A stretch of DNA of 64,000 nt from Candidatus Bathyarchaeia archaeon (GCA_038870975.1 JAVZJD010000001.1:512001-576000), one strand, 5' to 3'. Positions 8,496 through 62,785 are shown, counted from the stretch's first letter. A program made the numbers and translations. The notes: generated by a model not told the origin, from the sequence alone.

Positions 8496-8550
8496 AGAAG
8501 AAAAAATAGGGGGTTTTGCGGGTGACTTCATCACACCAATTTTTTATAAT
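8496..8550 (+). repeat. Dispersed repeat (left-arm motif AAAAATAGRGGGTTTTGCRGG..), copy 1
   Basis: agaaaaaatagggggttttgcgggtgacttcatcacaccaatttttta; near-identical to 11222-11278 and related to copies at 54222, 54617, 55221, 56368 and 60844. Confidence 0.8.
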
Positions 8551-8879: not shown

Positions 8880-10931
8880 TTAGAATGGTATGTAAAATCT
8901 CACCATTCCAGCGATGCAACCGATTAGCGTCACAATAGCTATGCCTGCTGCGAAGCCTCCTACGGCTGGTGGAATCCACTCCTCGTATAGCCTGCTTCCG
9001 CCTATTCTGATAACTATCGTTTTAACTATCCAGGCTGCTAGGAAGACCGACCAAAGGCAGTTCCAGAATCCTCCGAAGTTTGTAGCTATTAGAAAGCCTA
9101 CTGGCTCGAAGGGAAACCATAGGAATCTAGCGTGCAGAATTGCTAAGGCTGTCACGATTATGAAGCCAGCAGCTCCATATGTTAGGAATGTTTCATTTGA
9201 TGGAAGAGAATATACATAGTTTAGACAAGTCTCACCTCTATCCATACCTAGATACCACGTTGGCAAACCAGCCCTCGTACCGTAAAGGTTTGCAAGCCAA
9301 ACCCTCGACGCGAATATAGTGGGCACTGATATTACCATGGCCATAGCACTGACCCAGAAAGTGTTCTTCAAACTTGTCTTCGTAAGGTCTGCCATCTTCA
9401 AGTTTAAGGCTGTTGTAAAGAAGCCGTTTCCAAATCCAAACGAAACGACGTTTGAACCCCAGAATGCCCACTGGTGGCTCATGACGAAGCTTGCGGTAGG
9501 CTCTGGTGGACGGGTGGGCCACCTAATCCTCATCGTCCAAACAGGCCAGATGCGGCAGTCAGATGCAATAAATGCGCCGTGACCGAACAATACGAGCATA
9601 GCAAGCCACGTAGTGAAGCAGTTGAACGCTATCAGTAGTAGTGAGGCCAAGAAGTCTATGTAGAGGAGTTGACAACTTATGATGCACGCTATGATCGATG
9701 CTACTAACATAATGTACATGGACCTATAGCTCATCGCCTCATTCTTTTCCCAATCTGGTGCAACCCTACCGAAGGCGGCTTTGATTGTAGTCAAAAGATA
9801 CCCTCTATTTAAGTAGATCTGCATAACGGCTAGAGCTAAGAAACCCCCAACCATGCTGAATAGATTCCATCTAAATGGAGCATCCCATCCAGGCGTGTTC
9901 TGATAGCAACACATCCTTGCCCAACTCGGCATGCCCAGTACTCCCGTGTAATAGCCCATCATGTATGCCGCCTGGTCAAGTATCCACATCACGAAGGTCC
10001 AGAACCACACATTGAAGGATACGCTGAGTGGAACCAGTAGAGCCATAGCGAAAGCTATCATATCTTTGCTATAGCCATAGTAGCCTACAACCGACTGAGC
10101 GATTATGTCCGTCTCAGTTACATGAACAGCACCGGATGGACAAGCTTCACGCCACGCGTAGATGTCTGGGAACCATGGGAACGTCCTAGCCATGAAGATC
10201 GGTATCCCGTAGGCGAAGGCCAGTACGAAGCCTATCCAGAACGGCCCAGCAAACCTCTTAGCCCTACCCTCTCCACCAGATTGAACCATCCTTACGATCT
10301 CATAACCAGCAAGCGCCAGTGGAAATGGAACCCTTTCTACGTCGAACCATGCATGTCTGAAGATCAGTACGACTGAAGATGTGAAGAAGAAGAAAGTAAT
10401 ATATTGCAGGCTCATGACGAAGACGATGGGACCCCAGTGAGCCCAATTCGTAGCAACGCCCCCTCGAACCATAGCTTGAACTTCCTCTAATGGAGGCATC
10501 CACCAAATGCCTCTGAAAATACCACGGGGATCCGTCTGTTGGAAGAAGGCCGGTCTGATAGACCAGTCTGTCGCAAGATACGCGAAGCCAAGCGTACAAG
10601 ATGCAATATTCCCGACGGACCATAAGTATGTGAGCAGACTATTGCTAACCTTAAACCACTTTCGAAGCGAATACATCAGAGTCAGTAGAAGGTATGACCA
10701 CACCACGTAACCCGTAACCCTTGAAATCATGCCCAGATTGTAGCCACATTGCCAAGCACCAGGCAACATGCCCAGCAAGCAGAAGGACAGCATCGTCAGA
10801 AATGATGTGATGAAGGATAATATAGCCAAGGGGATCCACGGAACCTTTTCTTCTAGTTTCTCACTGCCCGTTTTCCCACCAAATTCAGGTCTATGCTGAA
10901 TATATATATGTTTTTCGCCCTCCTTTTTCAC
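8880..10931 (-). CDS. DUF6785/DUF6784-like multi-pass membrane protein (OPT-like), paralogue 1
   Basis: W.DVE.VPFP motif, HARFLWFPFEPVGF, IRIGGSRLYEE, C-terminal RFYIPF; many TM segments. Confidence 0.75.
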   Translation of the reverse strand: MKKEGEKHIYIQHRPEFGGKTGSEKLEEKVPWIPLAILSFITSFLTMLSFCLLGMLPGAWQCGYNLGMISRVTGYVVWSYLLLTLMYSLRKWFKVSNSLLTYLWSVGNIASCTLGFAYLATDWSIRPAFFQQTDPRGIFRGIWWMPPLEEVQAMVRGGVATNWAHWGPIVFVMSLQYITFFFFTSSVVLIFRHAWFDVERVPFPLALAGYEIVRMVQSGGEGRAKRFAGPFWIGFVLAFAYGIPIFMARTFPWFPDIYAWREACPSGAVHVTETDIIAQSVVGYYGYSKDMIAFAMALLVPLSVSFNVWFWTFVMWILDQAAYMMGYYTGVLGMPSWARMCCYQNTPGWDAPFRWNLFSMVGGFLALAVMQIYLNRGYLLTTIKAAFGRVAPDWEKNEAMSYRSMYIMLVASIIACIISCQLLYIDFLASLLLIAFNCFTTWLAMLVLFGHGAFIASDCRIWPVWTMRIRWPTRPPEPTASFVMSHQWAFWGSNVVSFGFGNGFFTTALNLKMADLTKTSLKNTFWVSAMAMVISVPTIFASRVWLANLYGTRAGLPTWYLGMDRGETCLNYVYSLPSNETFLTYGAAGFIIVTALAILHARFLWFPFEPVGFLIATNFGGFWNCLWSVFLAAWIVKTIVIRIGGSRLYEEWIPPAVGGFAAGIAIVTLIGCIAGMVRFYIPF

Positions 10932-11221: not shown

Positions 11222-11278
11222 AAAAGAAAAAATAGGGGTTTTTGCGGAGGAGACTTCACCACACAAATTTTTTATAAC
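11222..11278 (+). repeat. Dispersed repeat (left-arm motif), copy 2
   Basis: aaaagaaaaaataggggtttttgcggaggagacttcaccacacaaattttttataa; direct repeat of 8496-8550. Confidence 0.8.
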
Positions 11279-52646: not shown

Positions 52647-52720
52647 GCCGCGGTAGCTCAGCCTGGGAGAGCGTCCGGCTGAAGACCGGATTGTCGCCGG
52701 TTCAAGTCCGGCCCGCGGCA
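52647..52720 (+). tRNA. tRNA-Phe (GAA), intronless, CCA not encoded
   Basis: GCCGCGG-TA-GCTC..GAGC-G-TCCGG CTGAAGA CCGGA-TTGTC-GCCGG TTCAAGT CCGGC-CCGCGGC-A forms a full cloverleaf. Confidence 0.97.
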
Positions 52721-52966
52721 CTTTCTTCCATCAGAGCCTCCATTCTCTTGAAGAGAAAGTTTCTCTCTTAATCTTCTGGGGTATACCCTAACTCCATCTT
52801 TACTAGTAAAATTGCATTGTTTACTAGTAAACTCTTGATCTGCCAGTAACGCTTTAACGAATTGCTGAAGACTGTTGAAGCCGAGCATTTTAAGCTTTTC
52901 CATAAGTATTGGATATTCCTCCTCTCTTACGGATACTCCAACAGCCTTCCAACCCCTAACCGGCAT
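52658..52966 (-). CDS. RHH-domain ORF reading antisense into tRNA-Phe (intN-like fragment)
   Basis: VGVSVREEEYPILMEKLKMLGFNSLQQFVKALL is RHH-like, and the 3' end overlaps the tRNA, as for split SSV-type integrase N-fragments. Confidence 0.55.
   Translation of the reverse strand: MPVRGWKAVGVSVREEEYPILMEKLKMLGFNSLQQFVKALLADQEFTSKQCNFTSKDGVRVYPRRLREKLSLQENGGSDGRKCRGPDLNRRQSGLQPDALPG
52799..52831. promoter_or_regulatory. Paired palindrome TTTACTAGTAAA-N9-TTTACTAGTAAA (putative protein-binding site)
   Basis: Perfect 12-bp palindromes at 52799-52810 and 52820-52831; the same pair at 54341-54373; a single copy at 56496-56507. Confidence 0.6.
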
Positions 52967-53093
52967 TTTACTTCCCTCTATACATCTTCTTAATTTTCAT
53001 GATTTTTTCATAAAATGCTTCCCTTCTTCTCCAATTATTCTCTCTTTAACCGTCATCCACTTCTTTCCCTTCCTCAGAAGATTTTCCAATATT

Positions 53094-53276
53094 TTGTATA
53101 GGAGGAACGCTTTTATAAATTCATCATCAATCTTTATAGTTGATGAAAAGTTATGGGCTTGGGCACACTACGGAGCCCGTTCCTTAGGTTTAAGAGGTGT
53201 AGCCGATTACATTTTTGAATTGATCCGAAGAGACAAAGCTGAGGCTGAGAAAAGGTCTAAGCCCTCAAATCTTTAG
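53094..53276 (+). CDS. Small RHH-like DNA-binding protein (TTG start)
   Basis: SIFIVDEKLWAWAHYGARSLGLRGVADYIFELIRRD beta-alpha-alpha pattern; divergent from the intN-like ORF. Confidence 0.45.
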   Translation: MYRRNAFINSSSIFIVDEKLWAWAHYGARSLGLRGVADYIFELIRRDKAEAEKRSKPSNL

Positions 53277-53566
53277 ACCATATCCTACGGAGGCTTTTTC
53301 TAGTCTTTCCATTAAAATCCATAATCTTCCATTTTTATGGTAAATTTTATGGGTGTTTTTATGGTTAGTTAGACCCCCTCCCCCCTAGGTTTTTCCATTA
53401 TATTTTTACGGTGCTTTTCCATAAATATGTCCCGAAAATAATGGAAAATGTCCATTATTTAGCGAATAATTTAAGCATATTTTCATCCGCATTCCGCCGT
53501 TTAAGAAGCGTTATATATGAAGACGGTTAAGTATCTGAGAGAGACGCATATAGCGGTAGTCATCCC

Positions 53567-53869
53567 ATGAAAGACGAGGAATTTATAATCTCCAATAATG
53601 TCGTGAAGCACGTGTTTAGAAGACATAGAGATTGGATTAGTATGTTAGGTTTACGGAGTATTGAGGAGATAAGAATATTTATGGTAGATGTATTGAGGAA
53701 GCCCGATGAGGTTTATAGAGATGTTTTCCATGATAATGTGAGGTATTTTCTTCGAAGGATGAGCGGTGATCTCTGGCTATGCATTGTGACTGTTGGCCCT
53801 GAAGTCCACACAGCATATCTTATAAGCCAGAAGAAATACAATAAGTACAGGGTTACAAGATGGTTATAA
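53567..53869 (+). CDS. RelE/BECR-fold putative toxin (DUF4258/PBECR2-like)
   Basis: KHVFRRH, VLRKPDEVY, CIV....V.TAY; coupled to DUF2283. Confidence 0.65.
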   Translation: MKDEEFIISNNVVKHVFRRHRDWISMLGLRSIEEIRIFMVDVLRKPDEVYRDVFHDNVRYFLRRMSGDLWLCIVTVGPEVHTAYLISQKKYNKYRVTRWL

Positions 53870-54138
53870 TGTCTCTGTTAGATATTGATATGCGGATGCT
53901 TATTGAGGGTATTGAAAGAGTCTGTGGCATAAGCCTACCTAGAAGGGTGACGGAGACATACTTAGATCCGGAAGCCGGAATCTTATATGTAAGGTTCTCG
54001 GAGCCTAAAAGAGTGGAAACCGGGGAGCCACTACCATTAAAAGCTTTAGCAACCATCTTTAGAGATGAAGACACGGGTGAGATCACAGCAATAGAGATTC
54101 TGAAGCCAGAGGAGCTTCTAAACGAACTCAACCTATAA
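53860..54138 (+). CDS. DUF2283 putative antitoxin
   Basis: YLDPEAGILYVRFS ... D..GEITAIEIL. Confidence 0.8.
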   Translation: MVIMSLLDIDMRMLIEGIERVCGISLPRRVTETYLDPEAGILYVRFSEPKRVETGEPLPLKALATIFRDEDTGEITAIEILKPEELLNELNL

Positions 54139-54221
54139 TTTAGCGCCCCTATCGACCCTCTTCGTAGCCTAGTTTCAAAATCACGCCCCTACTCTTTACC
54201 TCCAATGGAGGACAGACCACT

Positions 54222-54423
54222 AAAAAATAGGGGGTTTGCAGGGGGATTTCTCCATCTATCCTTGGTTCAAGTCCGACCCGCGGCACCTTCACCATACAGC
54301 CTCCATTAGTTAAGCGGTGGAGACGGTCTTCTTTCAACTGTTTACTAGTAAACCAAGATAATTTACTAGTAAAAGCTGGCTCGCTTAGTAATGCTATGGT
54401 AAGCTGCTGAAGATTTTGAAAGC
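54222..54423 (+). repeat. Junction repeat: left arm + tRNA-Phe 3' copy (54264-54285) + right arm with palindrome pair
   Basis: The right arm (cagcctccatt, paired TTTACTAGTAAA, tgctgaaga..ttgaa) is homologous to 52721-52885 downstream of the tRNA. Confidence 0.85.
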
Positions 54424-54616
54424 ATTTAGGTAAATAAAAACAAAATATTTTGAAACGATGTTCAAAAACAAATAGGGTAAAATATTATTTTCTTGTCTCA
54501 AAATTTAAAATATGAAGGTAAAGCTTACCAATATAGTGCGGCTCCTACCTATTAAGGCTTATGTTAAATGCTTTATAATTTGATTCCAATAGTTAAATCC
54601 CAAGATATCGCTAAGA

Positions 54617-54643
54617 GAAAAAGAGGGGGTTGCGGGGGATCTC
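54617..54643 (+). repeat. Partial left-arm motif copy
   Basis: gaaaaagagggggttgcgggggatctc. Confidence 0.55.
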
Positions 54644-54744
54644 GTTAATCATTTTTGCATATAATAGGGTTTATAGGTTTAAATACGAGAGAATGTAAAA
54701 CTTTAATTTAGACATTCTAATAATCATCTTTAGGTGTTAAAGAG

Positions 54745-54951
54745 TTGGATGTATCTGTTTCTGAAAGCCAATTGAGGCTTATATTAAATAGATTGGATAT
54801 GGTTAGGCTGGAGCTTTTGAGGCTTAGAGCCATGCTTCTACCTGAAGAGGAGTTGAGTGAGGAAGAGAGGAGAGAGCTTGAAGAGGCTCGAAGAGAGATA
54901 GCTGAGGGCTTCAGCGTAAGCCTTGAAGATCTCATTAAGGAGATAGGCTGA
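54745..54951 (+). CDS. Archaeal RelB-like antitoxin
   Basis: LRAMLLPEEELSEEERRELEEARREI..G..VSLEDL acidic pattern upstream of RelE. Confidence 0.75.
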   Translation: MDVSVSESQLRLILNRLDMVRLELLRLRAMLLPEEELSEEERRELEEARREIAEGFSVSLEDLIKEIG

Positions 54952-54957
54952 CAATAA

Positions 54958-55221
54958 ATGTTTCAGATACTCGTATCCCAGAGAGCTAGAAAATCCATTG
55001 AGAAACTTCCTGGGTACTATAAAAGAAGGATCATTGAGCTACTACTAATTTTCCGTGAAAACCCGGTTCCAGCCGAATATTACGACGTCAAAAAGCTTAA
55101 AGGATACACTGATACTTATAGAGTTAGAATCGGTAACGTTCGGGTAATCTACGAAATATTATGGGATTCTAAGAAGGTTCATATTTTATTAGTCGAATGG
55201 AGAGAAAGAGCCTACACTTAA
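54958..55221 (+). CDS. RelE/ParE-family toxin
   Basis: ARKSIEKLP, KKLKGY.DTYRVRIG..RVIY, RERAY. Confidence 0.9.
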   Translation: MFQILVSQRARKSIEKLPGYYKRRIIELLLIFRENPVPAEYYDVKKLKGYTDTYRVRIGNVRVIYEILWDSKKVHILLVEWRERAYT

Positions 55222-55293
55222 AACAAAAAGAAAGAGGGATTTTGCGGGAGATTTCTCCAGCCGTCTCTGATTCGAACCCCGCCTGGTCTACCA
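55221..55293 (+). repeat. Left arm joined to a different (tRNA-Ala-like) 3'-end fragment
   Basis: aaagagggattttgcgggagatttctccagccgt (near-identical to 56377-56414), followed by TTCGAACCCCGCCTGGTCTACCA (55271-55293). Confidence 0.7.
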
Positions 55294-55510
55294 CTTATAT
55301 ACTCCTTGATGAACTCCTACAGCTTTAATCTTTTAAAACAATAATCTATGTTTTCCCACGACAAAGAACCGAAATGGATGAGGAAGAAATCACCATCACT
55401 AGTCAATGGCAGGTTCGAACCTATCCCCGTATATCATGACCCACGCAATTCCACCTTAGCATTTCAGGCTTATTTCAGCAACCACTCTTTTCTTTTGGCA
55501 AGCTTAATCG

Positions 55511-55867
55511 TTAATTTGCGACCTCTTCAATTTCTTCTAGTATTTTTGAGAACTGCTCTTTAAGTCTTGGTAGATCTCTCTTCACGGTCTCCCAAACTAA
55601 GTCTAGGTTTACGCCAAAATACTGGTGGATTAATTTATCCCTCATCCCAGCAATCTCCTTCCATGGAACCTCCGAATACCTTGATTTAGTTTCTCTACTA
55701 ATGTTCTTTGCCGCCTCTCCAATTATTTCGAGTCCTCTTAAGACCGCGTACTGCTTTTCAACGTTGGCAAGAAAATCCTCTTTACTGATACCTTCAATAA
55801 ACTTCTCTATATTTGATGCTGCCTCCACTATATGCTTGAGGTATGCTTTATCTCTTCTTGTAGACAA
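55511..55867 (-). CDS. HEPN toxin (DUF86/HepT)
   Basis: [35 protein letters not shown] (RX4HXY). Confidence 0.92.
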
Positions 55868-56183
55868 TTATCATTTCCCTCTTTACATCATCGATTATGT
55901 GCGGGTTTATGCTGCTGAAAATCCCAAGGTCAACCTTCCTCCCAAAGACCTCGCTCATCTCCTCCTCAATCCTTATGAGATCAAGGAGAGATTTCCCACT
56001 ATCTCTATCAAATTCTATGGCAACATCTATATCGCTCTCCGACTTCTGCTCCCCTCTAGCGAAGGAGCCGAAAATAGCCATAAAAACTATATTATTTCTC
56101 TCACAAACCTCAATCAGCTTCTCTTCTAAACCTTCTTTCATTAAATCTTTTGGTAAATCCTGAATCTTGCTTTTAGGAAGCAC
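55848..56183 (-). CDS. Minimal nucleotidyltransferase (MntA antitoxin)
   Basis: [23 protein letters not shown]. Confidence 0.92.
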
Positions 56184-56367
56184 GTCTTTTATCTTCTATC
56201 TCCTTAAATTTAATCCTTTTTCTCACTAAGCACCCCGCTATTTAGGACTTCTATCTAAGTCTAAGTGAGACGCACGGAAAATGGGGAAGCTCAAGGCTAA
56301 TAAAACATTAAGATAAGATGCTTCTTACACCATTAAAAACCATTTCTTAAAGCGGAAATATAAACGC

Positions 56368-56507
56368 AAAACAGAAAAAGAAAGAGAGGTTTTGCAGGAG
56401 ATTTCTCCAGCCGTTTTTAGTTTAAGTCCGGCCCGCGGCACTTTCACCATACAACATCCATTAGTTAAGTAGGGATAGAGGTCTTCTTTCAAATCTTTAC
56501 TAGTAAA
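56368..56507 (+). repeat. Junction repeat: left arm + tRNA-Phe 3' copy (56419-56440) + right arm with one palindrome
   Basis: Aligns with 54222-54352 (caccataca..ccattagttaag..ggtcttctttcaa..tttactagtaaac). Confidence 0.85.
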
Positions 56508-56592
56508 CTCGAATAATGTATAAGCCCAGGGTATCACACTATAGTATGGCTATGGGAGGCAATTAAGCTGTGCAAGCAGCTAGACATTCCAC

Positions 56593-56940
56593 GTGATCAA
56601 GAGAGGATCTAAAAGCTTAGGCGGTATGATAGTTGGCGTGTATAAGGCTGCTTCAACATGGTTTGGAAAGGATAAGCCTCTATGGCTAGATGGGGTTAGG
56701 GTCATCGAGGAGTATGAGGAAGAGAAGAAAAGTGGAGAGCTAGAGCTGGTAGGCTGGAGGATGCTGAGAGAGCTGGAGACAGATGAGATTCGAGGTATAC
56801 CTTACGAAGAAAGCCATAATATAACTAAATCCTCCCAAGAGAACAAGCATACCAACAGTGGCGGATATGTAATAGATAGAACAGCCGCAATAAAGGCTTT
56901 TGTTAACCCCTTTACCTCAAGGTATAGAGTATCTGAATAG
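56593..56940 (+). CDS. Hypothetical protein (possibly a fragment)
   Basis: 115-aa ORF with no recognised motif. Confidence 0.3.
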   Translation: MIKRGSKSLGGMIVGVYKAASTWFGKDKPLWLDGVRVIEEYEEEKKSGELELVGWRMLRELETDEIRGIPYEESHNITKSSQENKHTNSGGYVIDRTAAIKAFVNPFTSRYRVSE

Positions 56941-57067
56941 AAAATGCTTGAAGTGGCATGGGCAGGCCGGGGATGGAGGTCGACGCCTAAGGCTCCTTAT
57001 GCTTGAACAGTTCCCTGCAATACCTTAACCTTAATTATCGGAAGACGACAAAATGTTATTGAGGCGT

Positions 57068-57622
57068 CTAAATATGGACCGTGGAATTGTTCGTAGGTTT
57101 TAGCTCGCAGAGGATTCTGCGGTATAATTCTGGGCTTATTCTGAACCCGGCTTTTAGGAGCTCGTCTAGGATTTGGACTGCCTCATCCCTCATTATTGTT
57201 CCCCGCTTATAAGCCTTGATTATTACGCCGCATGTTCCGATCGGCGTTACATTAAGCATCCTTGAGACTCTCCTCGCTTCTCTATCGTCCGCTATAAGAT
57301 ATTTTATGTCTAGCTGCTTGCACAGCTTAATTGCCTCCCTCTCCCCTGAACCGAGCCTCACATTTGTGTCCAGGAAGCGGTATTCAGCGTCTATCTTAGG
57401 CTTTACCCGCTCCCTAATTATCCATGCTCCAACAGCTCGCTCAATAATGAACGCATCACTAATGTTAAGAGCTTTCCCCTTGACCACCGCCTCCTCAAAG
57501 ACGGCCTCGGGGATAAAGATTCTCTCAAAGAGAGATCTAAGTATGTCAAGCTTGCCGACCTTCGCCAGATAGATTAGTGGTGTGGAGTTTGAGACTGCGT
57601 AGGTAGGCTTATCCTCGCTCAA
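57068..57622 (-). CDS. DUF3368 PIN-like protein
   Basis: VSNSTPLIYLAKVG.L, IPEAVFEE, LGSGEREAI, DDREAR, GT.GV, GFRIS. Confidence 0.88.
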   Translation of the reverse strand: MSEDKPTYAVSNSTPLIYLAKVGKLDILRSLFERIFIPEAVFEEAVVKGKALNISDAFIIERAVGAWIIRERVKPKIDAEYRFLDTNVRLGSGEREAIKLCKQLDIKYLIADDREARRVSRMLNVTPIGTCGVIIKAYKRGTIMRDEAVQILDELLKAGFRISPELYRRILCELKPTNNSTVHI

Positions 57623-57935
57623 GCGCCCTCAGATCCTCTTCCAAATCCTCAACGCTATATTGGAGTGTAACCTTCTTCTGCGCCAATACATCAATCATCT
57701 CCCATATTGAGATGCCAGCAATCTCGGCAGCTCTTGAAAGCGTAACCAACCCATCCCTATACAATTCCACAGCTTTCCTAAGCCTCCACTCACGCAAGTA
57801 ATGCTCCAAAGCTCTCTCCAGAATGGTCGACTTATCCACCTTCTCCTCCTTGGCTATCTCCTCTATGAAACGCACTATTTCCTTAGGCAGCCTAGCCGAA
57901 ACCACCTCAGACAAGGATAGACCCCCCGTATACAA
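57609..57935 (-). CDS. UPF0175-family (RHH-HTH) antitoxin
   Basis: VSARLP, AVELYRDG.VTLSRAAEIAGIS.WE, Y..EDLEED. Confidence 0.88.
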   Translation of the reverse strand: MYTGGLSLSEVVSARLPKEIVRFIEEIAKEEKVDKSTILERALEHYLREWRLRKAVELYRDGLVTLSRAAEIAGISIWEMIDVLAQKKVTLQYSVEDLEEDLRALERG

Positions 57936-58069
57936 TTTAAAACCATGTTTACATATTTAAACATTAACTATAACCATGCATCATCTCTCTAGGAAACATT
58001 CTTAAATATTGGGGCGATATTAAAAATGTTATTGGGTGCCCAGACGTGAGCGATGGTTCCACCCATGTA

Positions 58070-58183
58070 ATGAAGGGCACCAGCCTCTAGGGTTTAAATC
58101 CCTTCTTCTTTTAAATCCAGAAGTAATGAGTTTAGCGTGAAGAGCACTATTTATGATCATTATGAGAGACTTAATGATCATAA
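58070..58183 (+). repeat. Second-type junction: ATGAAGGGCACCAG + T-arm remnant + palindrome pair TTATGATCATTA-N9-TAATGATCATAA
   Basis: 14-nt identity with 62583-62596 in the same register to a GGTT T-arm remnant; inverted arms at 58151-58162 and 58172-58183. Confidence 0.55.
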
Positions 58184-58214
58184 CTATCTTCATTTTTACT
58201 CCCTCAGTTTAAGA

Positions 58215-58793
58215 TTAGGTTTTGTAGTTTCTTGCGTAAAGGACTATGCCTACTGCTAGAATATCCATGCATGAGGCCGCGACGACCATTATATCAAATA
58301 ATATTGTTAGACTCGTGATGGACGCTTCCCTTAAGAAAAGCGAGGTTAAAGCGTCGGTAACATAGTAGCTAGGTACAAATTTGCTGACCACTTGAGCATA
58401 GGAGGATAGCGAGGCACCAACAAATGTGCCTAAAAATAGTTGTGGAAGCACAAAAAGAAAGGCTATTCCCGTTGCTGCATCGAATGTTTTGGCTAGGACG
58501 GCTGTAATTAAGCCGAAGCCTACATTAGATAAGGAGAAGATTAGCACAAGGAGGAAAGCCATGACGTAAACCAGAAGTCCTACATTCGGCCTGAAACCCA
58601 TAAGATAAGTTGCGATAAAAACGAGAGCCGCCTGAATTAAGGCTATGAGCATGTAAGATAAAACATGGCTCATAATGAATTCAGTTGGAGTCATAGGAGT
58701 TAACCTTATTCTCCTCAGCATACCGTTCTCTCGGTCTTGGGTAAAGGACTGAGCAACAACCATTAGGATGAAAATAGATGCGAAAGTGAGCAT
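58215..58793 (-). pseudogene. 5'-truncated ABC-2 permease
   Basis: DRENGMLRRIRLTP, PQLFLG, PSYYVTDAL; lacks the N-terminus and has no partner ATPase; two hairpins at the break. Confidence 0.7.
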
Positions 58794-58836
58794 CTATTTT
58801 CACTTTCTTCACTTCTTCAAACAAGTGAAGAAAGTG
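58770..58836. repeat. Two abutting perfect inverted repeats (12-8-12 and 14-8-14)
   Basis: gaaaatagatgc-gaaagtga-gcatctattttc (58770-58801) and cactttcttcactt-cttcaaac-aagtgaagaaagtg (58801-58836). Confidence 0.75.
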
Positions 58837-59244
58837 GTTTTTATCCCCGCTTCACAAGTTAGTAAAGCTCACTAATATGATGCTACTCGTACTTATTAAA
58901 GCTTATGTTAAGTTAAATGCCAGCCCGATGGTTGCTCCATAATGTGTGCCGTATGCTATTAACACTTTCACAATCTTACCTGGACAATAGTTCTTAACAA
59001 AAAATAAAAAGATATAAGATTATCTTGACTGATAGAACACTTCACGTTCTTTACGAATCAAATGAAAATCTGGAAATTTAAAGGGATTGGTTGAAGAGTA
59101 AAATGATAGCTTAGAGGGGGAGGTCTAAAAGTCCATACAAAGTTCATACAAAACCAAAAAGCTCTAAACGAGGAGAGAGCAACTTGAGTACTTTCCATTG
59201 TAACATAGTTGTTTTTCACTAGCTCAGTTATCAGTCTGACGGAT

Positions 59245-60214
59245 TTAGCGAACTTCGCATACTCCTCCTGGATCTCGCAGGCCATATAGCGCTGTACGAC
59301 GCCTAATTGATAGCCCATAAGCACTCGTCACAATTACTTTTTCAATGAACCTCGTTAATTCACTAGCAAATCTTGTGGCCAATTTAGCGTCCACGCCTAT
59401 TTTTTCCACCATATACTGTTGTATCCGTTCAGCGCTTGAATCTCTGTCATAACCACAGGCATACATTATTTTCCCGATTTGCCACACTAGACTGTCAAGC
59501 CTTAGCAATGATATGTTGCCGCCTACTCTTTCCTTCAAGCTTTTGAGGACAAGTATCCAAGCTTTCCTGAAAGACTCATCGCTTCCATAATGCTCCAGTA
59601 ATCCGGCACTAACTGTAACATTTTTGACGTGAAAATCTACTGGGATAGGAATATCCCAAGGAAACTTAGCGTAATCACCGAAACAAATCACATGGGAAAT
59701 ATCAAATGCCTTCATGGCAAAGACCATGGTTTTCCGCTCCATTCTGCTTTCAATGGTTTCCGATAGCCTTTTCCAAAGTAGAACGGGGTTTTCCCTTATC
59801 CTCTCATAATTCTCAACAAACCATTTTCCAAACCCGGAATTAAAAATCTTCCAGATTCTGGCAACCTTTATCCGCAAACTACGTACATTTATGGGCTCAT
59901 TGAGGAAGACTTTTATTAAAAATTCAACCTGTTTTAAATTATTCAGGTTATCGAAGCCGCTTGCAACTCTAGCTAACGTTGCCCAAAAAATTATCTGCGC
60001 CGCCGTGACCAAGCTGAAAGTCGATGATTCCCGTACAAATAGATATTAGACCCAGAAACTCCGGCTTCACTCCCCTCTCTCGAATGGCTTTTAGGGCTTG
60101 ATACTCAGGTTCCAGCATATCGAACTTAACGATTTTATCGAGTCCTAATTCGCAGAATAAATCTGCAATAACTTTAACACGCTCAAGATTAACGTCAACT
60201 TCTTCCACAGACAT
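59245..60214 (-). pseudogene. AGOG-family N-glycosylase/DNA lyase, +1 frameshift in a T6 run
   Basis: IIDFQL..GG..FW, KTMVFAMK, IPIPVD.HV, LDSLVWQIG. Removing one A at 59985-59990 joins ORFs 59969..60214 and 59245..60012 (ADNFWATLAR). Confidence 0.8.
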
Positions 60215-60231
60215 CCCAAATTACTCCCGAA

Positions 60232-60690
60232 CTAACAGTCAAAAGGATCATTATTTTCGATAGCCCTTCTCACATTTGCCATGGCCTCACCTAGGCGAAG
60301 TCCTGAAGTCGGTGCGATAACCTCTACCCTAAAATTCTCAAAAGCCCTTCTAACGATCTCAACGTAATCTCGACCGCCTAGTACAACCACCTTGTCAAAT
60401 CTACTAAGATTCTTCTCCTTAATCTGCTCTTTAAGCTTCTCCAAGCTAACAGGTTTGGTCTGGGGTTTCTTAAAGGTTACATTATAATTTTCAGGAATAA
60501 TGGAATCTGGGTCGATAAAACCATATTTAGCGGAGAGAATCACCCATCGGTCTGCAAACTTCTCTGCATACTCTCTATTGGTTTTGAAGAAAGCACTAAC
60601 ATATGTATCCCTCGCCGGCTTAGGACCAGCGTCTGGCTGGAGGTCCCAGATTTTCTTAAATCCACACGAAACTACCACTAATACCGCCAT
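60232..60690 (-). CDS. DUF6884 (YaaA-like) protein
   Basis: VVSCGFKKIW, PARDTY.S..F, WVILSAKYGFI.P...I..YNVT, LGG.DY, GL.LGE. Confidence 0.75.
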   Translation of the reverse strand: MAVLVVVSCGFKKIWDLQPDAGPKPARDTYVSAFFKTNREYAEKFADRWVILSAKYGFIDPDSIIPENYNVTFKKPQTKPVSLEKLKEQIKEKNLSRFDKVVVLGGRDYVEIVRRAFENFRVEVIAPTSGLRLGEAMANVRRAIENNDPFDC

Positions 60691-60843
60691 CCAAAACCCA
60701 ATCTAGCTAATTAAAACCTTCTTATTTCAGTATAAATTAAATTGAGCTTAAACGCCTTTTAAATCCTAGTCTCAACATCCCCTACAAGCGCTTCTCAGAG
60801 AACCTATATTTGGAAGAAGACAATCTTGTTTAACTGTGAAAAT

Positions 60844-60870
60844 AAAAATAGGAGCTTTGCAGGTCTTCTC
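60844..60870 (+). repeat. Degenerate left-arm motif copy
   Basis: aaaaataggagctttgcaggtcttctc, between the AGOG/DUF6884 pair and vapBC. Confidence 0.5.
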
Positions 60871-61059
60871 GAATTGGGTAAGCCGCAAGCTCCCTCAGAC
60901 CTCCTAGAATCGGAAAGAGGGGTTGGACCTCGTTAGAATCTTCTTTCCACGTATCACTCTGGTTTGGAAACAGCCTTAGAAGTCTGGATTTGATAGAGGA
61001 TGCAGACGTTTCCTCAAAAGTGAAAATTGCAGACACTCTGATAAGCAGTTTTCTCTTAA

Positions 61060-61440
61060 TTATTGTAGAAGTTTAAGGCCGAAATTCTTGAAAATACTGA
61101 AGTGCTTTAAATCGAATGTGTAGAGGGATGCTCCTCTATTTAACACTATGGCTGCAATCATGACATCTGTCCTTCGTACAGGTGTTCCTAAACTTTCCGC
61201 TTTTAGCTCTAATTCGGCGGATAACTGGGCATCCCTCTTTGTATAATCAATTATTGGTAGGAGCAGAACATCTCTAACAGGCTTCGCATACTTTTCAAGA
61301 CCATATAAAATTTCATGGAGATTAATCACTGTTGTGGCAACATCCTCGCCTCTCTCAATAAGCTTCCTTAAAGCCTCATCGCCCCTAGCAGACCGCCTAT
61401 CAAAGATCTCAATTAAAACATCCGTATCTAAGACGATCAT
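61060..61440 (-). CDS. PIN-domain toxin (VapC-like)
   Basis: VLDTDVLI, INLHEI..G, DVMIAA, YTFDLKHF. Confidence 0.9.
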   Translation of the reverse strand: MIVLDTDVLIEIFDRRSARGDEALRKLIERGEDVATTVINLHEILYGLEKYAKPVRDVLLLPIIDYTKRDAQLSAELELKAESLGTPVRRTDVMIAAIVLNRGASLYTFDLKHFSIFKNFGLKLLQ

Positions 61441-61664
61441 AATCTACGCTCAGCCCTCGTAGCATAAATTTCCCTTAGCAGAACCTCTTTATCCCTAAAC
61501 TCCACGCAGCCCCTAAGATTCTTTAAGACTTCAAGGGGGCTAGTGCGCTCAATAAGCCTCTCAAATAACTCACTAAAGCTCTCACCCTCACGCTTAATCA
61601 TCAACAACTTCCTATATACGTCATCCCTAATCGTTATTGTTTTAACCAACAAATTCACCATCAA
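61437..61664 (-). CDS. VapB-family antitoxin (UPF0330-like)
   Basis: KTITIRDDVYRKL..IKREGESFSELFERL. Confidence 0.88.
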   Translation of the reverse strand: MMVNLLVKTITIRDDVYRKLLMIKREGESFSELFERLIERTSPLEVLKNLRGCVEFRDKEVLLREIYATRAERRL

Positions 61665-61947
61665 AGAAAATGTTTAAACATACATTTAAACATTTATTTA
61701 GAGCGCTTGAAATAGAATATTTGAAGAAAGCTCAACGTATCGATAAGGTGTTCATTAGAGAACATGAGGAGACGATTCTTCCCAAGTCATCTATCACCAA
61801 ATCTTGATAATAAAACCATCTTCCATTGATGGTTGCCATTGAAATTTGTACCCAGACAATTCTTTTAGAACATCTTTAACTTGGCTAAAAGAGGATAATA
61901 TTCCCTTTGTTGTTAGTTTCGTGCAACTGTACTCTAAGAACAAAAAA

Positions 61948-62199
61948 TTAAAATTCTCCGTGCGGGAAAGTTTTCGCTTTTTTATCTGGATATTCCAAAA
62001 GAGCTTCCCTAAAATGCAAGAAAATTTTCTTAGTTTCACCATCCTGCATAAATAATGTGGCAATATTATGAACCAGTACGAGGTTAATCTCTGGATCAGA
62101 CTCCAGCAATTTTAACAGTTCTTCAAACGCCTGCTCCTGCTGATCTTCTGAGAAACAGCATATCACATAAATGTTGTCTAATGCAGCAGCCGGATCCAT
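61948..62199 (-). pseudogene. RadB/Rad51-like internal fragment fused to the Cdc6 relic
   Basis: DP..ALDNIYV...F..DQQ...F..L..L......LVLVHNIATLF resembles the region before Walker B of RadA/RadB. Confidence 0.4.
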
Positions 62200-62561
62200 C
62201 CCTCCAGGGCTTAAGCTCCGTGAAGCTATAGCTGGAGCCGCCTTCTCCAGCAATTTCCTATAGAGCAGGTATCTGCTGACCCCCTCAACCTTCGCGTTAA
62301 TATAGACATGCTTTAGTGAAATGTCGAGTTTAGATGCCTCGCTCGTAATACGCTTGCCGTATTACGAGCGTATGGCGGTGCATGTTTTCCAGTTCCAACA
62401 CCGCAGACAATCTGCGTAACCTGAAGAAAAGCGTTCTCTGGATCTTCTAATACATGCTCATATAAGGAAAGTAAAACCCCAATCTGCCCTTTGCGGTGGG
62501 GTAGCCTCTCTGGAATGTAACGAGGTGAAAGCTTGCTCCTATCCTTAAATATTGAAACCAT
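62200..62561 (-). pseudogene. Orc1/Cdc6 N-terminal fragment, frameshifted
   Basis: MVSIFKDRSKLSPRYIPERLPHR..QI..L...GVGTGK, then a frameshift, later HVYINAKVEG.SRY.LY..LL. Confidence 0.8.
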
Positions 62562-62582
62562 AAACTTACACAAAGTAGATGC

Positions 62583-62643
62583 ATGAAGGGCACCAGAACC
62601 AGGGGTTTTGATCCGGCCTGCGGCACTTTCACCATAAAACCTC
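62583..62643 (+). repeat. Terminal junction: second-type arm + tRNA-Phe 3' copy (62604-62625) + ctttcaccata
   Basis: ggttttgatccggcctgcggca, 17/22 to the tRNA 3' end; trailer shared with the 54286 and 56441 copies. Confidence 0.7.
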
Positions 62644-62785
62644 ACTCTCTAGGACTGGGGTTAACTTCTTTTAACCACTCCCCCAACCTTCCTCACGTCC
62701 TCTTCATCTTTTTTAAGATATGTCTAAAAACGGGCGAATTGTGTTATACTGTAACTTTTTTATTTTCCTCGCTCTACTATATGAT

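Follow-up and report, generated by a model that had tools for sequence, protein, structure and literature searches.

A probable tandem accretion array of small integrase-less modules behind a tRNA-Phe gene in a Candidatus Bathyarchaeia archaeon

The genome of the Candidatus Bathyarchaeia archaeon GCA_038870975.1 (here G000) comprises two contigs, C1 and C2, with a total length of 1.85 Mb. The window analysed here is a 64,000-nt stretch of C1 (JAVZJD010000001.1:512001-576000), and its positions 52647 to 62643 are occupied by an island that begins with a tRNA-Phe gene. We read this island as a tandem accretion array of small, non-autonomous modules that lack an integrase, resemble the cis-mobilisable elements (CIMEs) of bacteria and are probably moved in trans, a reading to which we give a probability of a little under 0.6. 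The modules are about 0.4 to 2.2 kb in size, they lie between direct repeats of the target gene's 3′ end, they share their ends and they vary in presence and order among relatives.

The anchor of the array is a tRNA-Phe (GAA) gene on the plus strand (52647-52721; ARAGORN; Rfam RF00005, 67 bits), the final 22 nt of which (att0, 52699-52720) recur on the same strand at 54264, 56419 and 62604 with 21, 20 and 17 identities out of 22; 0 such copies are expected in shuffled sequence. These repeats, and the conserved arms around the first two of them, had been described in a first-pass annotation made from the sequence alone, and both were recovered here. Junction 1 (54220-54285, plus strand) consists of a left-arm copy, LA_b (54220-54255), a 9-nt spacer and att1 (54264-54285); junction 2 (56372-56440, plus strand) is built in the same way from the copy LA_d, a 9-nt spacer and att2 (56419-56440), and the arms at 54222-54365 and 56377-56520 are 75-81% alike across 133-144 nt. 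Junction 3 (62604-62643, plus strand) holds the oldest att copy of the array; as had also been described, its left side differs from that of junctions 1 and 2, and it shares with them a trailer of just 20 nt or so (about 18 nt within the feature as delimited). The core gene GH2 starts behind it at 62720, and this GH2 flank is conserved in the related genome G002. Self-comparison of the window suggested a possible additional, decayed junction at 58070-58101. Among the other tRNA genes of G000, none is followed within 60 kb by a copy of its own last 21 nt (at most 3 mismatches).

The DNA immediately behind the tRNA gene, right arm 1 (RA1; 52658-52966, minus strand), contains an open reading frame (ORF) for a ribbon-helix-helix (RHH)-like protein of 102 aa, which reads across att into the antisense strand of the tRNA. 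In RA2 (54286-54400, minus strand) the RHH domain is lost and the tail frame is kept, with palindromes at 54341 and 54362, and RA3 (56441-56553, minus strand) has one palindrome, at 56496. This 12-bp palindrome, TTTACTAGTAAA, occurs in five exact copies in the window, all of them in right arms (those at 52799 and 52820 lie in the linker of RA1), and the sole further exact copy in 1.85 Mb is found behind tRNA-Gln. On the minus strand, the ORF starts with MP..G and about 45 residues of strand-helix-helix character, followed by a linker in which FTSK is the translation of the palindrome, then by a conserved ..TNGGxMVK segment showing variation of synonymous type and finally by antisense tRNA. The same ORF adjoins tRNA-Phe in G002 and G005, and tRNA-Gln, Val and Asn elsewhere. 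A profile of it gave 39 matches of 61-123 aa among 1.84 billion representative proteins, together with one weak match of 320 aa (repeated short matches), and many of the homologues end in antisense-tRNA peptides, of many tRNAs. No fusion to a recombinase was seen in this profile search, and no longer homologue was returned by a word-based search either. The ORF was considered as the int(N) part of a split SSV-type integrase; this identity was rejected because the homologues are only short and none is fused to an integrase, and because the island holds no integrase remnants, with no catalytic domain to the left of any junction. The right arm is thus predicted to encode a stand-alone small protein. 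An AlphaFold2 model reached a pLDDT of 77-92 over residues 1-45, where an extended segment is followed by two helices; structural hints of an RHH fold were all weak (AvtR at E 0.1; ORF56 of pRN1 and MatP not significant), Foldseek gave no significant match with this model, and the ORF had no Pfam match. Upstream of the RHH gene, the segment 53290-53460 contains iteron-like TTTTATGG/CCATAAAA repeats and a G/C palindrome, and homologous stretches occur at six other sites of the genome and, at C1:494273-494337, beside a second RHH gene (C1:494 kb). The TTTTATGG iterons with a GACCCCCTAGGGGG-type palindrome accompany RHH genes, also in the island of G002, and may be operators or an origin.

The opposite end of a module is marked by the left arm (LA), a site of 35-45 bp made up of an A-run and then GGGGkTTTGCGGGAGAttTCTCCA, with a 12-bp imperfect palindrome inside, which sits 8-15 bp upstream of the next att. 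Ten copies in G000 were significant with nhmmer, and the window contains seven, at 8496, 11222, 54220, 54612, 55221 and 56372, with a weak one at 60844. The copy at 54612-54643 (plus strand, E 0.005) has no att after it, and LA_c (55221-55260) precedes attX, a T-loop and 3′ end of tRNA-Ala-like type at 55265 (LA_c and attX together 55221-55293, plus strand), whose best match is the tRNA-Ala of G000 (17/22). Each of the five congeners has the LA motif, which also occurs in another family of the order; the count in the reversed-pattern control was 0. About half of some 22 LA copies have a T-loop and tRNA 3′ end 8-15 nt downstream, from tRNA-Phe, Pro(ggg) (1 mismatch), Ser(gga) (0 mismatches), Leu and the Ala-like type, and islands elsewhere in G000 and in related genomes also terminate in LA. 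That LA or the junction might be a structured or known RNA was ruled out: Rfam recognised the tRNA alone, the junctions fold no better than shuffled sequences (z -0.7 to +1.1), and the palindrome GGAGA-nn-TCTCC has variable positions without covariation among 18 copies. Two direct-orientation LA copies (8496-8533 and 11222-11262), each followed by CACmAATTTTTTATAA, lie on either side of a gene for a 683-aa DUF6785/DUF6784 protein (8880-10931, minus strand), and the same LA subtype adjoins a DUF6785 gene in G004 (locus L012); this region may be a further LA-bounded cassette, away from any tRNA. At the start of contig C1 (515-554), LA is followed by a perfect tRNA-Ser(gga) 3′ repeat, and the tRNA-Ser(gga) gene itself lies at C2:2248, at the start of C2. 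A further island terminated by LA probably bridges the two contigs.

Movement between species is indicated by the comparison with congeners, whose core DNA is 77-86% identical to that of G000. The tRNA-proximal module differs in each of four congeneric species. Cassette 2 of the array, which consists of RA2, a RelBE gene pair and LA, stands directly behind tRNA-Phe in G004, followed by att and RA3, and is 97% identical to that of G000 as against about 83% (79-86%) in the core, a difference which implies that a module without an integrase was transferred recently. G004 is without cassette 1 and without the HepT/MNT module described below, and its homology at RA3 ends at 56554. The corresponding island of G002 is 3.8 kb long and of other content, with another RHH ORF first and a decayed LA and att last, before the conserved GH2 gene, whilst the first right arm of G005 is just 74% like RA1; the distal 6 kb of the G000 island had no match in any congener. 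The identity of cassette 2 and the recurrence of right arms at many tRNAs and in many lineages point, on sequence evidence, to real horizontal movement of modules that lack an integrase. A B-type array (the arrangement defined below) was also seen in an ENA contig (ERZ27245617, k141_107202; loci L110/L123), with 99.9% identity over 8.5 kb, behind an intron-bearing tRNA-Phe and next to a 5-kb left flank (Pus10, L21e, Rpb4) that has no good match in any genome of this order; we regard it as a lead only: either the contig is chimeric, or the entire array passed very recently to a distant archaeon.

Rearrangement within the species was found in conspecific contigs, which were reached through exact-protein look-up of an RHH homologue. 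Strains of type B are 99.17% identical to G000 (type A) over an 8.7-kb core flank. The order in G000 is tRNA-Phe, cassette 1, cassette 2 and attX-HepT/MNT, and in B-type strains it is tRNA-Phe, cassette 2, cassette 1, an 875-bp module X, LA-attX-HepT/MNT-LA, att and RA3 (C1 and C2 denote contigs throughout). The B order is present in contigs of at least nine sample or assembly records, and the G000 order recurs in GCA_038871795.1 on a 439-kb contig that is 100% identical over 12.3 kb. Samples in which the species is present are JGI 3300025089, 3300025090, 3300007999 and 3300022544, SRR7540159, ERZ27245617 and ERZ27245628. The A/B breakpoints fall exactly at att or LA, with B-type homology at RA3 ending at 56553. 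In B-type strains the HepT/MNT module lies between identical 45-nt LA copies, one of them left of attX (LA_x), and the RelBE-LA-attX junction of G000 is an exact recombinant of LA_c and LA_x. The identity of the cassettes between A and B, about 99.1%, equals that of the core. Neither order nor content is therefore constant, whether four congeners or the A and B strains are compared; a fixed arrangement in all relatives, with no circles, had been named in advance as an outcome that would tell against mobile cassettes. The first-pass annotation had also described the stack as ordered and newest-first, which is not supported, since internal insertions or deletions at LA occur too. A 1595-bp contig (L108) was considered as a circular form of cassette 1 and set aside, because its 30-nt terminal overlap equals the 31-nt LA-tail/att repeat that flanks cassette 1 in B-type strains and is no evidence of a circle.

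The array has no resident integrase. Six-frame searches of the genome with PF00589 and PF16795 found no tyrosine-recombinase domain in the window, in agreement with the first reading of the sequence, with more than 100 kb to the nearest integrases. Neither a recombinase domain nor a significant remnant of one was found in 52.6-62.8 kb, and decayed intC genes, the other outcome named in advance as adverse, were looked for beside the G000 junctions and not found; an accessory role for the RHH protein is still conceivable. LA, on the other hand, also ends elements that do carry an integrase, which makes movement of the modules in trans plausible. A 2.3-kb element of G012 (L018) is made up of tRNA-Leu, a convergent integrase gene with in-frame stops, RelB-RelE, LA and a tRNA-Leu 3′ repeat. 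The integrase of G000 itself has an uninterrupted frame of 432 aa (C1:679610-680905), with an Xer-like catalytic domain and an IS1-type Zn-binding N-terminus, and stands at one end of a 13-kb element whose far end is LA with a 15-bp core, a repeat of the sequence with which a methyltransferase gene ends. In a hot-spring metagenome-assembled genome (L021), LA is followed after about 65 nt by the stop codon of an integrase gene, and elsewhere integrase C-terminal remnants adjoin tRNA-Pro(ggg) in an island that ends 12 kb away in LA and att. A tRNA converges on the integrase 3′ end at 34 of 80 loci of the LA-associated integrase family (one of them tRNA-Phe), and module X of the B-type strains starts with a 16-residue integrase-tail remnant that abuts the Phe att. 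Other recombinases of G000 include an SSV-type integrase (C1:49828-50310; PF16795, E 1.5e-37; 355-aa open frame), which adjoins tRNA-Gly(gcc), and two serine recombinases, at 316 kb and 681 kb of C2.

A module thus comprises att on the tRNA side, a right arm with an antisense RHH-like gene across att and paired TTTACTAGTAAA palindromes, a cargo that is mostly a toxin-antitoxin (TA) pair, and LA. It is proposed that such modules are non-autonomous kin of the LA-ended integrase elements, comparable to the satellites or CIMEs of bacteria, and that an integrase of the LA-associated family, acting in trans as a helper, would excise them and re-insert them at any att or LA junction. The array would grow at the tRNA-proximal att and at internal junctions, and its distal part decays. 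The RHH protein and its palindromes might serve as a regulator or directionality factor, and the TA cargo might stabilise the module or act in defence.

Several observations weigh against this proposal. The crossover lies in att for some events and in LA for others, and one single-nucleotide difference in att (GAC/GGC) is compatible with no single fixed crossover. Homologous recombination is the better fit for this pattern; indeed, RadA-type recombination among the junction repeats could alone explain the intraspecific reshuffling. Neither an excised circle nor an empty site was observed. No intact integrase specific for tRNA-Phe was found in G000, whose intact family member sits at a protein-gene core. 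What speaks for an RHH fold is a moderate model and a few weak matches. LA was considered as a general mark of the integrase family and rejected as such, since it lies within 6 kb at just 2 of 80 more distant loci (integrases 40-60% identical), a count that is uninformative because the elements may exceed the length of the flanks fetched. The RHH gene was likewise considered as a part of integrase-bearing elements and rejected as such, its profile having no match near the 80 integrases or next to the integrase of G000. It follows that modules of the RA type are a lineage of their own and not fresh deletion products.

The cargo of the modules consists largely of small gene pairs. The first-pass annotation had listed five TA pairs, of which RelBE (through its ParE/RelE toxin), MNT-HEPN, UPF0175/DUF3368 and VapBC pass Pfam cut-offs as type II systems, whereas the fifth, BECR/DUF2283, fell short. 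The latter is the putative TA pair of cassette 1 (53567-54138, plus strand; 100 aa and 92 aa), in which DUF2283 scored E 0.0048, below the Pfam cut-off, and the 100-aa partner matched nothing in Pfam or NCBIfam, so that its identity as BECR is unsupported there. Cassette 1 is compact with intact ORFs, and a homologous pair (75-77%) occurs on tRNA-Thr-bearing contigs of G001 and G003. The cargo of cassette 2 (54745-55221, plus strand) is a RelB-like protein of 68 aa without a Pfam match and a RelE/ParE toxin of 87 aa (PF05016, E 3.5e-7), and an 81% paralogue of the pair, with LA, lies at C2:60865-61231. The attX module encodes a HepT (HEPN) toxin and MNT antitoxin (55511-56183, minus strand; PF01934, 2.5e-31; PF01909, 2e-18). 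A 50-nt repeat of 82% identity (54518-54567 and 58862-58911) carries a TTAAGGCTTATGTTAAAT-like box, a third box lying at 54768 inside the RelB frame, and this repeat may be a common promoter or operator.

Beyond junction 2, the module at 56554-58101 is confined to G000-type strains, being missing from B-type strains and five congeners; it contains a 115-aa ORF, UPF0175/DUF3368 (57068-57935, minus strand; Pfam E 1.5e-17 and 4.3e-13) and the possible decayed junction. Its first 34 bp (56554-56587) are an exact inverted copy of 57306-57339, an internal piece of the DUF3368 gene, and mark a rearrangement breakpoint, because they start where the match of G000 to the B-type (56553) and to G004 (56554) ends. 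Further on are found, all on the minus strand, an ABC-2 permease fragment (58215-58793; Pfam), AGOG (59245-60214; Pfam), frameshifted into frames of 255 aa and 81 aa, DUF6884 (60232-60690; Pfam), and VapC (PIN) with VapB (61060-61664; PF01850, 1.2e-12; PF02697, 6.6e-16). AGOG and DUF6884, both named in the first-pass annotation, pass Pfam cut-offs. Conspecific B-type strains have an intact 385-aa permease, its ATPase, a 322-aa AGOG and a flavodoxin gene, the last of these lost in G000. The relics left of 62604 were read by eye in translated frames as a decayed orc1/cdc6-like AAA+ gene with frameshifts (61794-62560, minus strand), from an N-terminal motif and a GTGK Walker A; the fragments have no Pfam match. 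The position of this gene directly left of the oldest att suggests that the oldest element may have been a plasmid or virus that encoded its own initiator of replication.

Part of the distal 6 kb is ordinary decay, with the cdc6 relic, the frameshifted AGOG and the truncated permease, and it is on such decay that the most serious alternative is built. It holds that successive whole plasmids or viruses integrated at tRNA-Phe and, through deletion, lost their integrases and the majority of their genes, that later changes were homologous recombination between repeats of 45-130 bp, and that no module was ever mobilised. The integrase tails that persist in module X and in the tRNA-Pro island fit this account, as do crossovers spread over the whole LA-spacer-att unit and the cassette identity between A and B strains, from which the swap would be an internal rearrangement. 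We consider it possible, though clearly the less probable account. The architecture of the right arm is not a random deletion product, given that an RHH gene across att adjoins many tRNAs in many lineages (39 clusters); the compactness of cassette 1 and the interspecies identity of cassette 2 also speak against it, and the order swap requires either excision and re-insertion or a duplication and two deletions.

A true integron analogue, as the first-pass annotation had suggested, is unlikely. Here LA would be attC-like, and a dedicated recombinase would swap cassettes (att relic, gene, LA) by LA x LA exchange among tRNA-anchored arrays. The identical LA copies around the MNT/HEPN module of B-type strains, the LA_c x LA_x recombinant in G000, the tRNA-Ala-like relic inside a Phe array and the pair of LA copies around the DUF6785 gene (8.5 and 11.2 kb of the window) are all in its favour; however, every LA x LA event is explainable as homologous recombination, and no recombinase gene was found at or near the array. 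Of four features that define integrons, the array shows one, variation in content and order between close strains, with cassettes 1 and 2 swapped and X present or absent at 99.1% core identity. It lacks the other three: there is no resident integrase or attI, with no integrase match in the window; gene pairs lie on both strands (RelBE plus; HepT/MNT, VapBC and UPF0175/DUF3368 minus), which makes a single common promoter unlikely; and LA has neither a covarying nor a stable fold. That the G000 order is an assembly artefact of repeats (22-130 bp), which could mislead short-read assemblers, is very improbable in view of the second record with the identical order, the many records of the B order and an LA_c-attX junction that shares just about 12 nt with the alternative, too short for a misjoin.

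Among known systems, the array resembles bacterial CIMEs more than an integron. As reviewed in PMC5704250 (citing Pavlovic 2004 and Bellanger 2011), CIMEs are bounded by attL and attR, have no integration genes and stack into a resident att, and their movement is ascribed to the integrase of a related element. Those of Firmicutes, accreted in tandem at tRNA or other 3′ gene ends, are like the modules described here in being integrase-less, att-bounded and stacked (PMC5704250). The G000 array has no integrase or excisionase genes of its own; LA is shared with integrase elements, and an integrase-tail remnant lies at the Phe att in module X. It differs in that its modules are far smaller and have a conserved RHH-across-att end of their own rather than deletion scars, in that its host is an archaeon, without a conjugation module, and in that mobilisation in trans is inferred here. 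The claim of miniature elements that keep att and arms thus stands as far as discrete integrase-less modules are concerned, and their movement in trans is plausible through the LA shared with integrase elements. The tycheposon islands of Prochlorococcus are anchored at tRNAs, with scattered partial tRNAs, newcomers that push older elements inward and integrase remnants; their cargo is called adaptive, and subpopulations with excised or tandem elements are described (10.1101/2020.12.28.424599). Anchor, partial tRNAs, inward displacement and remnants are shared with the G000 array, but tycheposons carry their own integrase, and their integrase-less parts are described as degenerate and as lacking conserved ends. 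In archaea, tandem integration and integrase loss are known (PMC8371274, PMC7253208). The class I (SSV-type, ‘suicidal’) integrases recall the array through an ORF over the tRNA 3′ end at attL, fixed elements and tandem integrations (PMC7253208, PMC8371274); in contrast, the att-crossing ORF of G000 belongs to the stand-alone family of 61-123 aa, for which 1.84 billion proteins yielded no fused full-length form, and the LA-associated integrases are left intact on integration (a class II-like layout). Common to integrons and the array are short cassettes that end on one side in a conserved site, the presence of TA cassettes and an order that differs between strains; unlike integrons, the array has no intI, attI or Pc, is anchored on a tRNA, is loaded in both orientations and has in LA a site that is not folded like attC. 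In the literature searched, no description was found of small archaeal integrase-less modules with conserved ends.

A broader idea, which we hold only tentatively and consider doubtful, is that Bathyarchaeia have an integron-like cassette exchange of a different build, with integrase-less modules, a universal LA end, a Zn-ribbon Xer-like integrase encoded elsewhere and many tRNA anchors. Strand exchange at the LA/T-loop junction would then let one module family use any tRNA, and the tRNA-Ala-type relic in the Phe array would be a trace of traffic between arrays.

Descriptions of integrated elements in archaea usually concern whole viruses or plasmids, or the debris of these. The pieces described here lack an integrase and have an anatomy of their own, with a putative DNA-binding gene that spans att and an end site of 35-45 bp; modules of this conserved anatomy recur at several tRNAs and in several lineages, and their arrangement differs in near-identical strains. 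Being short, the LA-att-RA junctions lend themselves as substrates to recombination tests of an uncharacterised integrase family. If it is true that a helper integrase moves the modules, they would offer uncultured Bathyarchaeia a compact route by which TA genes, and possibly defence genes, are assembled and reshuffled.

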